Origin: Hydrogenophaga sp.
GTDB taxonomy: Bacteria > Pseudomonadota > Gammaproteobacteria > Burkholderiales > Burkholderiaceae_C
Direction of reading: 5' to 3'
Assembly (NCBI RefSeq): GCF_018780075.1
Contig: NZ_JADMKB010000114.1
Location: 2,446 to 66,445, forward strand
Length of the DNA stretch: 64,000 nucleotides
Shown here: positions 5,080 through 44,224 of the stretch, piece by piece
Position numbering within the stretch: position 1 is the stretch's first letter
Layout: every line of letters begins with the position of its first letter
Made by a program: the position numbers and the translations under genes
The notes under the pieces: model-generated
What the model was told of the DNA's origin: nothing
What the model saw: the letters and a program-made list of their open reading frames with translations, nothing else
Database searches by the model: none

Positions 5080-6546
5080 ATGCATATACACATCCTGGGC
5101 ATTTGCGGCACTTTCATGGGCGGCCTGGCCGCGCTCGCCCGCGAAGCGGGCCACCGCGTGACCGGCTGCGACGCCGGGGTCTATCCGCCCATGAGCGACC
5201 AGCTGCGGGCGCTCGGCATCGACCTGATCGAGGGTTTTGCCGCCGACCAGATGGACCTTCAACCCGACATGTACGTGGTGGGCAACGTGGTCAGCCGCGC
5301 CCGCCTGTCCGATGGCACGCCGAAGTTCCCCCTCATGGAAGCCATCCTGGAGGCGGGCGCGCCCTACACCAGCGGCCCGCAGTGGCTGGCCGAACACGTG
5401 CTGCACGGACGGCACGTGCTGGCGGTGGCCGGCACCCACGGCAAAACCACCACCACCGCCATGCTGGCCTGGGTGCTGGAATCGGCCGGCCTGCAACCGG
5501 GCTTTCTCGTGGGCGGCGTGCCGATGAATTTTGGCGTGTCGGCAAGACTTGGCGCCCCCACGCGCCCCGCTTCGCGGGGTTCGCTGCCCCCCGAGGGGGC
5601 TGTTTCGCCTTGGGGCGGCCCGGCGGCGAAACAGGCGACGGCGCCTGTGTTCGTGATTGAAGCCGACGAATACGACACCGCATTCTTCGACAAGCGCAGC
5701 AAGTTCGTGCACTACCGCCCTCGCACAGCGGTGTTGAACAACCTGGAGTTCGACCACGCCGACATCTTCGACAACCTGGCGGCCATCGAACGGCAGTTTC
5801 ACCACCTGCTGCGCACCGTGCCACCCACGGGGCGGGTCGTCGTCAACGGCCTGGAAGAGAGCCTGGACCGGGTGCTGCACCAAGGCGTCTGGAGCGAGGT
5901 GCGCAGCTTTGGCGCGGCGGTCAGCGACTTCACCGCCCTGGGCGAGCCCCACGCATTCGACGTGCTGGAGCGCGGCCAGCGGGTCGCCCGGGTGGAGTGG
6001 GCGCTCACCGGCGTGCACAACCAGCTCAACGCCTTGGCGGCGATCGCGGCGGCCCAACACGTGGGCGTGGCGCCCGCCGATGCCGCTGCGGCGCTGGGCG
6101 GGTTCGTGAACGTGCGGCGCCGCATGGAGGTGCGTGGCACCGCGGTGCGCGACGGGTTGCCGATCACGGTGTACGACGATTTCGCCCACCACCCCACGGC
6201 GATCCGCACCACGCTCGACGGCCTGCGGCGCCGGCTCGGGGCTTCGGGCGGGCGCATCCTGGCGGTGTTCGAACCGCGCAGCAACACCATGAAGCTGGGC
6301 ACGATGAAATCGCAGCTGCCCTGGAGCCTGGAAGCGGCCGACTTGGCGTTCTGTCACGCCGGCGGGCTCGACTGGGACGCTGCGGACGCGCTGCTGCCCA
6401 TGGGAGAAAAATCAAATGTCGCCCAAACCATCGACGAGCTGGTGGGCCAGGTGGTGTCGGCCGCGCGCGGCGGCGATCACATCGTCTGCATGAGCAACGG
6501 CGGCTTCGGCGGGGTGCACGCCCGCCTGCTGACGGCGTTGCGCTGA
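5080..6546 (+). CDS. mpl: UDP-N-acetylmuramate:L-alanyl-gamma-D-glutamyl-meso-diaminopimelate ligase
   Basis: MHIHILGICGTFMGGLAALA..., P-loop GTHGKTTT, and EADEYDTAFFDKRSKF typical of Mpl. It carries a 31-codon repeat-derived insertion (next feature). Confidence 0.93.
   Translation: MHIHILGICGTFMGGLAALAREAGHRVTGCDAGVYPPMSDQLRALGIDLIEGFAADQMDLQPDMYVVGNVVSRARLSDGTPKFPLMEAILEAGAPYTSGPQWLAEHVLHGRHVLAVAGTHGKTTTTAMLAWVLESAGLQPGFLVGGVPMNFGVSARLGAPTRPASRGSLPPEGAVSPWGGPAAKQATAPVFVIEADEYDTAFFDKRSKFVHYRPRTAVLNNLEFDHADIFDNLAAIERQFHHLLRTVPPTGRVVVNGLEESLDRVLHQGVWSEVRSFGAAVSDFTALGEPHAFDVLERGQRVARVEWALTGVHNQLNALAAIAAAQHVGVAPADAAAALGGFVNVRRRMEVRGTAVRDGLPITVYDDFAHHPTAIRTTLDGLRRRLGASGGRILAVFEPRSNTMKLGTMKSQLPWSLEAADLAFCHAGGLDWDAADALLPMGEKSNVAQTIDELVGQVVSAARGGDHIVCMSNGGFGGVHARLLTALR
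5554..5646 (+). repeat. REP-like three-hairpin repeat, variant 2, inserted in frame inside mpl
   Basis: GCCCCCACGCGCCCCGCttcGCGGGGttcgctgCCCCCCgaGGGGGCTGTTTCGCCttggggcggcccggcGGCGAAACAG. It is near-identical in its core to the intergenic copy at 43526-43612. It encodes APTRPASRGSLPPEGAVSPWGGPAAKQATAP between ARLG and VFVIEADEYD. Confidence 0.75.
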
Positions 6547-9513: not shown

Positions 9514-10877
<1,364 letters not shown>

Positions 10878-11750: not shown

Positions 11751-11854
11751 GGTTGGCGCTCCACATCAGGTGGTGGCCAGCACTTGGACGGAAACCGTCT
11801 ATTCCCCAAGGAACTCGGGAGGCTGTGTTCCCGATGGAAGGATGCTATCCGATC

Positions 11855-42194: not shown

Positions 42195-43523
42195 TCAGAG
42201 GATGTAGCGCGACAGATCCTCGTTGCGGCTGAGCTCGGCCAGCCGCCCGTCGACATACGCTGCGTCGATCGAGACGGTCTGCCCTTCCAGCGCCGTGGCG
42301 CCAAAACTGACTTCGTCGAGCAGGTGTTCCATGACGGTGGCCAGGCGGCGTGCGCCGATGTTCTCGGTGCGCTCGTTGACATCGCAGGCGATCTGCGCGA
42401 GCTGCCGGATCCCGCTGGGCTGGAATTCCAGCGTCACACCTTCCGCCGCGAGAAGGGCCTGGTACTGGCGCACCAGTGAGGCGTGGGTCTGGGTCAGGAT
42501 CGCCTCGAAATCGTCCACCGACAGGGATTGCAGCTCGACGCGGATGGGGAACCGACCCTGCAGCTCCGGAATCAGGTCGCTCGGCTTGGCCAGGTGAAAC
42601 GCCCCGCTGGCGATGAACAGGATGTGGTCGGTCTTGATCATGCCGTACTTGGTGGACACGGTGGTGCCTTCGACCAGCGGCAGCAGATCGCGCTGCACCC
42701 CCTGGCGCGACACCTCGGGGCTGCCCGTGTCGCTGCGGGAAGCCACCTTGTCGATCTCGTCGATGAAGACGATGCCGTTCTGTTCGGCCGACTGCAGTGC
42801 GCGGCTGCGCACCTCTTCTTCGTTCACAAGTTTGCCCGCCTCTTCTTCCACCAGCAGCTTCATCGCTTCGGCGATCGGCAGCTTGCGCGTGCGCCGTTTG
42901 CCCTGCCCCATCTGCCCGAACATGCCCTTGAGCTGTTCGGCCATGTCCTCCATGCCCGCGGGGCCCATGATCTCCATCGTCGGGCGCGCTTCGACCAGGT
43001 CCAGCTCGATCTCTCGATCGTTCAACAGCCCCTCGCGCAGCTTCTTGCGGAACGCCTGGCGCGCCGCGCCGTCCGGCGAAGGCACCGGCTCGGCACCCAC
43101 GCTGCGGGGCGGCGGGATCAGGACATCGAGGATGCGGTCCTCGGCCGCGTCTTCGGCGCGCATCCGCTGCTGGCGCATCGCCTGCTCGCGTCCCTGCTTG
43201 ACCGCGATTTCCACCAGGTCCCGGATGATGCTGTCGACATCCTTGCCCACGTAACCCACCTCGGTGAATTTGGTGGCTTCGACCTTGATGAAAGGGGCGT
43301 CGGCCAGCCGCGCCAGTCGGCGCGCGATCTCGGTCTTGCCCACGCCGGTGGGGCCGATCATCAGGATGTTCTTGGGCGTGATCTCGGGCCGCAGCGCTTC
43401 GTCCACCTGCTGACGCCGCCAGCGGTTGCGCAAGGCAATGGCGACAGCGCGTTTGGCGGCCCTCTGCCCGATGATGAAACGGTCGAGTTCGGAGACGATC
43501 TCCTGCGGGGTCATCGAAGACAT
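42195..43523 (-). CDS. hslU: ATP-dependent protease ATPase subunit HslU
   Basis: [17 protein letters not shown]...[15 protein letters not shown]. 442 aa. Confidence 0.97.
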
Positions 43524-43525
43524 GG

Positions 43526-43612
43526 TGCCCCCACGCTCGTCACTTCGTGAATTTCGCTGCCCCCCGAGGGGGTGCGAGCTTGCTTGGGGCGGCCCTGCGC
43601 TGCGCTCATGGT
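43526..43612 (+). repeat. REP-like repeat, variant 2, copy K
   Basis: GCCCCCACGCTCGTCACttcGTGAatTTCGCTGCCCCCCgaGGGGGtgcgagcttgCTTGGGGCGGCCC... It fills the whole hslV-hslU spacer and is the closest relative of the mpl insertion. Confidence 0.75.
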
Positions 43613-43613
43613 G

Positions 43614-44162
43614 TCAGTCCAGTGTTTCAACGGTGTGGTTCATGTTGGTGTAGATGCAGATCTCGCCCGCGATGGCCAGCGACTGCCTCACCACGTCTTC
43701 CGCGCTGAGCGAGGTGTGCTGCGTCAGCGCACGGGCGGCGGCCTGCGCATAAGCGCCACCCGAGCCGATGGCCACCACGCCATGCTCGGGCTCCAGCACG
43801 TCGCCGTTGCCGGTGATGATCAGCGCGGCGCTGCGGTCGGCCACCGCCAGCATCGCCTCCAGGCGCCTCAACACGCGGTCGGTGCGCCAGTCGCGGGTGA
43901 GCTCGATCGCCGCACGCACCAGGTGACCCTGGTGCTTTTCCAGCTTGGCTTCAAAGCGCTCGAACAGGGTGAAGGCGTCGGCGGTGGCACCGGCGAAGCC
44001 CGCCAGCACCCTGTCGTGGTGGAGCTTGCGCACCTTGCGCGCGGTGCCCTTGACGACGATGTGCCCCAGCGTGACCTGGCCGTCGCCACCGATGGCGACC
44101 TGAACGCCCTCGGGCGTCTCGCGACGCACACAGACGATGGTGGTTCCGTGAAATGTTTCCAT
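43614..44162 (-). CDS. hslV: ATP-dependent protease subunit HslV
   Basis: [14 protein letters not shown]... from the internal ATG 44162. 182 aa. Confidence 0.95.
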
Positions 44163-44224
44163 AAGAGCATGAGATGGGGATGAACGGGTCGGCATCAAGC
44201 CCGATCGCGGAGCGAAGGGCGTTT

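Follow-up and report, generated by a model that had tools for sequence, protein, structure and literature searches.

The gene mpl in a 64,000-nucleotide stretch of a Hydrogenophaga sp. genome (contig NZ_JADMKB010000114.1; the whole stretch is called the window below, and its GC content is 67.7%) carries, in frame, a copy of a dispersed palindromic repeat, which we designate element A. We regard this insert as a tolerated in-frame copy of a repeat similar to repetitive extragenic palindromes (REPs) and Rickettsia palindromic elements (RPEs), residing at a permissive and often re-used loop of the protein, and we put the probability of this reading at about 0.8. We infer that the insert is a passenger, neutral for the function of Mpl and of no benefit to the enzyme; domestication of the inserted peptide is not supported.

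The host protein possesses all three Mur-ligase domains of Pfam (Mur_ligase, Mur_ligase_M and Mur_ligase_C), together with the EADEYD motif and a P-loop of sequence GTHGKTT. Among solved structures, those of Mpl come closest to it by sequence (3hn7, E 3e-127; 3eag, E 1e-116), closer than MurC. Its homologues are annotated as Mpl in their sources, the closest Mpl relatives are named Hydrogenophaga, and the synteny around mpl is kept in all seven orthologous loci fetched. An earlier note on this DNA, made from the sequence alone, had referred to mpl as an essential-pathway gene, which is an overstatement: Mpl is a recycling ligase, dispensable in E. coli.

In translation (positions 5080-6546) the protein reads VSARLG-APTRPASRGSLPPEGAVSPWGGPAAKQATAP-VFVIEADEYD, just as the earlier note had quoted it, and positions 5554-5646 indeed make up 31 in-frame codons, a multiple of three nucleotides without a stop. 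Distant Mpl proteins, retrieved with HMMER among 1.84 billion representatives, align to the query in two stretches (residues 1-159 and ~189-487), the insert being skipped in almost all of them. The segment P.NF..SARLGxxxx|FVIEADEYD is 15 aa long in 71 of 108 Mpl representatives, and 28 Hydrogenophaga clusters have the empty site ARLG-AGKT-FVIEADEYD (464 aa), whose DNA at locus L001 is GGC GCA GGC AAG ACC TTC. Orthologues with an empty site thus exist, as they should for an insertion, and match the short loop found family-wide; this shortness of the loop across Mpl generally identifies the empty allele as the ancestral state. The claim that about 31 codons are extra holds as a count of codons, while Mpl has gained 28 residues net at this position, the AGKT codons having been lost. 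A target duplication, which might have been expected at the boundaries, did not materialize: the flanking repeat GGCGCC (5551-5556 and 5639-5644) is not significant as such.

The AlphaFold2 model of Mpl was built on a 103-sequence alignment (a shallow alignment of 33 close homologues gave a predicted local distance difference test score, pLDDT, below 50 over residues 140-282) and has a mean pLDDT of 94.6 and a predicted template modelling (TM) score of 0.93; its top Foldseek matches are 3hn7 (E 3e-52), 3eag (TM 0.93 over the target) and MurC (TM 0.82-0.88). The sole weak stretch, residues ~160-189, is a coil with block means of 57, 50 and 68 between the strands 155-156 and 190-194. The insert is accordingly modelled as a loop, predicted to protrude in disordered form from a central domain and Mur-ligase fold that stay intact; it had been expected at the boundary of the N-terminal and central domains, and this part of the expectation was slightly off, the site lying inside the central domain, with the strand that follows the P-loop on one side and the EADEYD strand on the other. 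Unrelated inserts of 13-30 residues occupy the same turn in other Mpl lineages (representatives P0206, P0216, P0148 and P0144; PDB 3eag and 3hn7), from which the turn can be regarded as permissive throughout the whole Mpl family.

Nucleotide comparisons demonstrate that the inserted DNA is a copy of a dispersed repeat, beyond chance similarity. A blastn search with positions 5530-5670 against the window retrieved a single other locus, 43517-43599 (77% identity over 84 nt, E 1e-12), between hslV and hslU; the 20-mer TTCGCTGCCCCCCGAGGGGG occurs exactly twice in the window, two hits being reached in none of 100 shuffles; and a covariance model (R1), built from copies of other genomes, recovered 5552-5634 and 43525-43609, both at full length, with nothing credible beyond these mpl and hslVU copies in its scan of the window. 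The REP-like nature of the insert and the core shared with the hslV-hslU spacer, both claimed earlier, were therefore borne out by a formal similarity test, as were the three hairpins, which are features of the family and of which hairpin 1 and stem 3 covary among copies. Two corrections are needed: the window holds just two copies and not several intergenic ones, and the copy in mpl is complete as regards the repeat, but the element proper ends at ~5634 and is followed by a non-repeat tail (Table 1).

Table 1. Coordinates of element A, its parts and its host or neighbouring genes in the window
Feature	Positions	Strand	Description	Basis
mpl ORF (open reading frame)	5080..6546	+	UDP-N-acetylmuramate:L-Ala-gamma-D-Glu-meso-DAP ligase; 488 aa, intact	ORF list
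Element A copy in mpl	5552..5634	+	forward, in frame, full length (model positions 1-84)	cmsearch 88.3 bits, E 8e-15; blastn to hslVU copy
Block A	5554..5563	+	GCCCCCACGC, near-invariant 5' block	family alignments
Hairpin 1	5565..5579	+	CCCCGC-TTC-GCGGGG, copy-specific covarying stem	all 5 pairs with double-sided changes
Block B / hairpin 2	5582..5600	+	CGCTG-CCCCCC-GA-GGGGG-C, invariant, read here as LPPEGA	
Stem 3	5602..5632	+	5' arm GTTTCGCC, loop TTGGGGCGGCCCGGC (block C), 3' arm GGCGAAAC	covariation at all 8 pairs
Non-repeat tail	5635..5649	+	codons ATAPV; with the element replaces the ancestral AGKT codons	comparison with empty L001 and other forward alleles
Second element A copy	43525..43609	+	fills the 90-nt hslV-hslU spacer, reverse relative to the hslVU mRNA	cmsearch 78.6 bits
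hslU ORF	42195..43523	-	start codon adjoins the spacer copy at its block A end	
hslV ORF	43614..44198	-	stop codon ~5 nt past the stem 3 end of the spacer copy	

As to the surroundings of the two copies, a 7-nt direct repeat, CATGGTG, lies around the hslVU copy (43521-43527 and 43607-43613), and in the sense of the hslVU mRNA the GGGGG run of its block A is located 5-9 nt ahead of the hslU ATG, at the expected position of a ribosome-binding site. The ARLG codons 5' of the mpl insert (5545-5553, GCA AGA CTT GGC) include the rare AGA and CTT, where the empty allele has CGC and CTG, and show similarity to the 5'-flanking sequence of the hslVU copy (CGAAGACATGGT vs GCAAGACTTGGC); this likeness could reflect a conversion tract, microhomology or chance.

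Scanning of a species-representative genome collection for the exact core (CTGCCCCCCGRGGGGG-N4-20-TTGGGGCGGCCC) revealed at least 120 stretches with it in more than 20 genera. The counts given below for samples of 130, 67 and 134 copies hold among the matches listed. The hosts belong to Comamonadaceae (Hydrogenophaga, Polaromonas, Rhodoferax, Variovorax, Ramlibacter, Acidovorax, Ottowia, Curvibacter and others), and further include Rubrivivax, Methylibium, Rhizobacter and Aquabacterium; Achromobacter, Bordetella and Pigmentiphaga; Burkholderia and Trinickia; and Thiobacillus, Rhodocyclaceae and Casimicrobiaceae. The multi-genus scan and the R1 hits contradict a view of the copies as orthologous remnants of one ancient gene. 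About eight strong copies outside mpl in 212 kb that had not been chosen for element A correspond to one per 25-30 kb, which would extrapolate to roughly 150-200 copies per genome. The exact core was also found on 39 viral or prophage contigs of IMG/VR (L129-L167) and on several Burkholderiales plasmids and megaplasmids (NZ_CP019241.1, NZ_CP117194.1, NZ_CP138516.1 and others), which are a possible route of its spread across genera. Two contigs with element A, L064 and L100, are assigned to metagenome-assembled genomes outside Burkholderiales (binned as 'Rhizobium sp. Q54' and 'Synechococcus sp. UW140') and are probably mis-binned.

According to the alignments of 130 and 67 copies, element A is a unit of ~84 nt with three hairpins, in which block A (GCCCCCACGCT) is followed by hairpin 1, block B (CGCTG-CCCCCC-GA-GGGGGC, forming hairpin 2) and stem 3 with block C (CTTGGGGCGGCCCGGCG) between its arms. 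The blocks are near-invariant (in the case of block B partly by construction, since it was part of the search pattern), and the sequences of hairpin 1 and stem 3 vary among copies yet stay complementary. This variation is seen even inside one genome, all four copies of Variovorax M-6 being different. In the cleaner alignment paired cells make up 95.7%; the covariation score of 0.347 compares with 0.111 for shuffled data (0 of 500 shuffles reach the observed value) and 0.04-0.10 for slid partners, and double-sided changes occur at all 13 variable stem pairs. G.T pairs outnumber A.C pairs 63 to 26 in the larger alignment (p 1e-4) and 23 to 13 in the cleaner one, which suggests, with moderate strength, folding of the forward strand. 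The insert region has a fold z-score of only -1.9. Some copies are spanned exactly by ORFs of 27-28 codons, bounded by an ATG before block A and a TGA after stem 3 (L043:1870-1955 and L047:674-756), and CTGA(G) recurs past stem 3 in at least 17 copies. A conserved small ORF over the element was nevertheless rejected as unlikely, since the frame varies by copy and neither spacers nor hairpins have lengths divisible by three; the 'ATG/TGA' motif on the 5' side was likewise discarded, being mostly superposed stop codons of host genes, although it is present in some in-frame copies too.

The genomic context of the copies was judged by codon-position GC, the longest stop-free frame being meaningless at 68% GC. 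Extragenic copies lie close to stop codons: of the 64 copies whose upstream gene is co-oriented, 48 start 0-15 nt (mostly 3-9 nt) past its stop codon, and for a further 16 copies with a converging gene the stop of that gene is situated 0-17 nt beyond stem 3. As many as 27 of the 134 copies (about one in five) reside in frame within long ORFs, with coding signal and Pfam domains on both sides. By Pfam, these hosts are two molybdopterin oxidoreductases, RnfC, UvrA, methylcrotonyl-CoA carboxylase alpha, GlmS, two GcvT, RadA, AcrB, PGI, acyl-CoA dehydrogenase, acyl-CoA synthetases, GspE, FGGY kinase, threonine synthase, RecJ, RecQ, an HrpA-like helicase and oxoprolinase. The frame in which block B is read is biased, giving LPPEGA in 8 of 9 forward copies (p 1e-3) and APSGGS in 17 of 19 reverse ones (p 6e-7), and a stop in the LPPEGA frame occurs in 5% of copies vs 20% of shuffles. 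Orientation also depends on context, with forward-to-reverse ratios of 48:16 for extragenic and 8:19 for in-frame copies (Fisher p 1e-4). At three further loci element A makes up the first ~30-38 codons of a called NAD_binding_2 dehydrogenase ORF (L002:19292-19359, L003:19239-19321 and L127:17019-17098, minus strand) and stands between an ftsW/rodA-like gene and the dehydrogenase gene, whereas the ORF of L001 (300 aa) lacks it; the three cases represent either N-terminal extensions or mis-called starts. In the Ramlibacter locus L124 a third copy (9903-9989) fills the spacer directly upstream of the mpl start.

The mpl site proved to be highly polymorphic when its state was scored in 121 Mpl sequences of Hydrogenophaga, Ramlibacter and their relatives. 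Besides the 28 empty clusters mentioned above, element A is found in forward orientation in 28 clusters (two of them with two copies and one with three; peptide …APTLPAARGSLPPEGAVSPWGGPAA…) and in reverse orientation in 19 (peptide …RFAAGPPQGETAPSGGSDPRSGGAWG…); a different palindromic repeat, element B, stands at the site in 28 clusters (peptide …AQVKEEPAQRAGDTEQ… or …APCPPPASQAPPFPAQ…), and about 18 clusters have deletion remnants (P0114, APTRPA|TTTMAPV, which is window-like, P0108, P0103 and P0101). At the DNA level, element A stands at these mpl codons as its reverse complement in loci L002 and L126, and the two-copy allele of Ramlibacter L124 is a tandem duplication with a 75-nt unit that takes in the host ARLG codons. 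Element B of L003 and L127 (locus positions 10472-10573 in both) has inverted arms of ~20 nt and a centre flipped between the two loci, hence its two unrelated peptides. It is dispersed too (L102, ~1596-1700, 90% identity over 81 nt; L015, ~2765-2880), and its core …AGGTCAAGGAGGAGCCCG-CGCA-GCGGGCGGGGGACACGGA… is conserved inside a copy-specific complementary outer stem. In representative P0125 the elements A and B stand side by side at the mpl site.

The loop states are interleaved on a neighbour-joining tree built without the loop: at least 21-29 parsimony changes are required, vs ~72 with shuffled labels. L003, the nearest relative of the window (84% identical at 4-fold sites of mpl), yet carries B; in L002, which comes next, A is reversed and its stem 3 is identical to that of the window. 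Such a pattern could also have arisen if a few old alleles (empty, A forward, A reverse, B1 and B2) had been shuffled among Hydrogenophaga by homologous recombination, an explanation that competes with ours on the history of the site alone and that we hold to be quite possible, though less probable than repeated local events. The left junction LG|APT… is common to forward alleles of two genera, the right junction …RP-L-FVIE to forward and B alleles, the stem 3 shared by the window and L002 in opposite orientations would fit an exchange, empty alleles are nested in B clades on the tree, and the composite A+B allele could yield single-element alleles by deletion. On the other hand, the junctions, which differ between forward (LG|…|FV) and reverse alleles (LGK|…|TFV or …VGA|FV), fall into distinct classes both for forward (LG-APT… vs LG-xV-APT…) and for reverse alleles (K|…|T vs …VGA|F), stems differ among alleles of one class, and deletion remnants as well as the tandem duplication clearly arose on the spot. 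Given the junctions held in common, part of the polymorphism may nevertheless be due to exchange of a few old alleles.

We suppose that the history of the site was as follows. Extragenic copies of element A, mostly in the same orientation as the gene before them, would presumably be transcribed as a hairpin cluster of 3' untranslated regions or intercistronic spacers. One copy would have entered mpl in an ancestor of this Hydrogenophaga lineage, replacing four codons (AGKT) at the short turn that leads from the SARLG strand to the FVIEADEYD strand in the central ATPase domain. It could survive there because the net change of length was a multiple of three, because the frame read is poor in stops and gives a peptide rich in Pro, Gly, Ala and Ser (…LPPEGA…PWGGPAA…), and because the turn, solvent-exposed and variable in length in Mpl, can carry ~30 disordered residues without disturbing the fold. 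Turnover of the site would then have been rapid, by local tandem duplication, inversion, internal deletion, arrival of element B and, probably, exchange of alleles between species. The mobility of element A assumed here is suggested by its distribution alone.

Several observations weigh against this reading. The family alignments revealed no family-wide target duplication, terminal inverted repeats or GTAG/CGTC tag (flanking direct repeats of at least 7 nt occur in 6 of 93 copies, the CATGGTG pair being one of the six, vs 2.0 expected; Poisson p ~0.02; the excess, at 7-10 nt, is weak), and tblastn with two queries of REP-associated tyrosine transposases (RAYTs) found no RAYT-like ORF in the 1.03 Mb of fetched loci, a search confined to loci and not extended to whole genomes. 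The proteins in the neighbour-joining tree are closely alike, and the event count on it could be raised artificially by recombination. The element within mpl is more conserved than synonymous sites, which could mean constraint and not neutrality. Finally, copy-specific covarying stems, together with blocks that hardly vary from one bacterial family to another, would be unexpected in a purely selfish repeat and hint at some function of element A. On a bolder reading, element A, and B with its like design, would form an undescribed, order-wide class of structured nucleic acids, not just selfish, in which stems that vary by copy but always pair hold near-invariant loops and junctions a few nucleotides from stop codons, and whose in-frame copies are a by-product that keeps seeding disordered loops into housekeeping enzymes of free-living bacteria; the forward strand might act as RNA or single-stranded DNA in termination, in protection of mRNA 3' ends or in recoding. 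We consider this unlikely, but by no means negligible. Stem covariation may be explained either by selection on the folded strand or by neutral template-switch correction of quasi-palindromes, a known mutational mechanism.

It is considerably less probable that the folded nucleic acid acts in cis within mpl itself, in mRNA stability, translation pausing or DNA topology, so that its nucleotides are selected there. Interspecies identity of element A in mpl amounts to 83-93% vs 55-74% at the 4-fold sites of the gene, and this holds across orientations too (window vs L126, 90% vs 66.5%); moreover, the stem 3 arms of mpl alleles differ by compensatory pairs (GTTTCGCC/GGCGAAAC, GTCCCGCC/GGCGGGAC, GCTTTGCC/GGCAAAAC), and the strong covariation of the family and its excess of G.T over A.C pairs agree with a folded strand. 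However, the site accepts both orientations, and an RNA element would fail in reverse; close relatives have empty alleles and numerous deletion remnants; the nearest relatives of the window have the different repeat B in its stead; and the cleaner alignment shows only a weak wobble asymmetry. As to the high identity, recent insertion or gene conversion from other copies would explain it equally well. Conservation of the insert is that of DNA and not of the peptide, and it fits copies younger than the species splits, homogenised against the many other copies, or constrained as nucleic acid; in none of the three cases need the peptide have a function.

The earlier note had left the choice between a domesticated protein loop and a tolerated insertion. 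The latter is favoured by the reverse, duplicated, B and remnant alleles, by the conservation at the DNA level and by the disorder of the loop, whereas the former, in which the ~30-residue peptide would provide Mpl with a new interaction, localisation or regulated proteolysis, is very improbable. The forward peptides are, indeed, much alike over many Hydrogenophaga and Ramlibacter clusters (…RGSLPPEGAVSPWGGPAA…), and in-frame copies of other genes mainly use two reading frames; but the similarity of the peptides mirrors DNA blocks equally conserved in intergenic copies, the same peptide is present in about two dozen unrelated enzymes, the peptide that reverse alleles encode there bears no relation to the forward one, B alleles give two peptides unrelated to each other depending on the flip, alleles that are empty or remnants occur commonly, and AlphaFold predicts disorder. 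An ancestral Mpl loop that resembles the hslVU copy by compositional chance at 68% GC can practically be dismissed: although the loop is longer in some Mpl lineages, 3eag and 3hn7 among them, and the fold z-score of the region is modest, those loops are unrelated in sequence, the modal loop is 15 aa with empty alleles within the genus, the blastn and covariance-model scores (E 1e-12; 88 and 79 bits) are beyond chance, and more than 130 copies exist in other genomes and contexts.

We now compare element A with known systems. Neither window copy matched Rfam 15 at the gathering threshold, nothing relevant was obtained at E<=1 on four copy or array loci, and literature searches, including those by the core sequence, retrieved no description of element A from the library searched; the family thus appears to be undescribed. 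We classify it as RPE/REP-like and not as a member of either group because it lacks the tags of REPs and the features of MITEs (miniature transposable elements with inverted repeats) and is not in Rfam. It works like an RPE or a REP without belonging to a described family, and the kind of phenomenon is already known.

Rickettsia RPEs insert in frame in many genes (Ogata et al., 2000, 2002, as cited in PMC10969869). As described there, RPEs are, like element A, dispersed palindromic repeats with a large in-frame fraction in unrelated housekeeping genes (27 of 134 copies in our case), and the inserts add a conserved peptide while the protein survives, presumably at permissive surface positions, which element A shares. 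RPEs have a length of ~100-150 nt and reduced intracellular genomes as hosts, in contrast to ~84 nt and the large free-living Burkholderiales genomes of element A. The latter also differs in that it occurs in genes in both orientations, combines near-invariant blocks with copy-specific covarying stems and is mostly extragenic, right after stop codons. The likeness is an analogy by description across different taxa, and a relationship in sequence is not to be expected.

GTAG/CGTC REPs, similarly to element A, are high-copy extragenic palindromes less than 20 bp from ORF 3' ends, located mostly between unidirectional or convergent genes, with G.T pairs in stems, tandem clusters and occasional in-frame copies; intragenic ones have been catalogued, including that of uvrA (Di Nocera et al., 2013, PMC3733652). 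This catalogue contains neither mpl nor the peptides of element A. While element A is likewise abundant, extragenic and close to ORF 3' ends, its blocks have neither GTAG/CTAC nor CGTC/GACG (consensus of 130 and 67 copies), and it is a three-hairpin unit of ~84 nt and not a single hairpin of 20-40 nt or an inverted doublet. Furthermore, its stems are not conserved within a genome, and its core is common to several bacterial families, in contrast to REP classes, which are usually restricted to one lineage. REPINs (REP doublets forming hairpins) are inverted doublets, accompanied by a flanked single-copy RAYT, a Y1 HUH transposase (Bertels and Rainey, 2011, PMC3116915); element A copies are mostly single or in head-to-tail arrays, with an inverted pair at L109 only. 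MITEs in genes (Coxiella QMITEs, PMC5896051; enterobacterial repetitive intergenic consensus, ERIC; Correia elements) are also small and non-autonomous and can fuse or extend ORFs in frame, but element A has no terminal inverted repeats, no target duplication of fixed length and no identified parent insertion sequence.

Apart from element A, the window contains a chrB-b RNA motif of Rfam (11777-11834, minus strand; 41.2 bits vs the gathering threshold of 36.5), and in the syntenic loci of relatives ChrB_C and chromate-transporter genes are situated at its position.

In this context the insert in mpl is an ordinary one, and the element family and the polymorphism of its hot spot are the more interesting results. 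In-frame selfish palindromes have so far been treated as peculiar to Rickettsia and a few REP-rich species; element A does likewise across a large free-living order, with about one fifth of its copies inside housekeeping genes. On the practical side, such inserts inflate the variation of protein length and give annotated proteins spurious extensions at their N- and C-termini, and pipelines for orthology and structure can be misled by them. One loop of Mpl displays the full life cycle of an insert (empty, inserted, inverted, duplicated, replaced and decayed), and thereby offers a natural system for the gain and loss of disordered loops, for tolerated frames and for the spread of palindromes without an obvious transposase.

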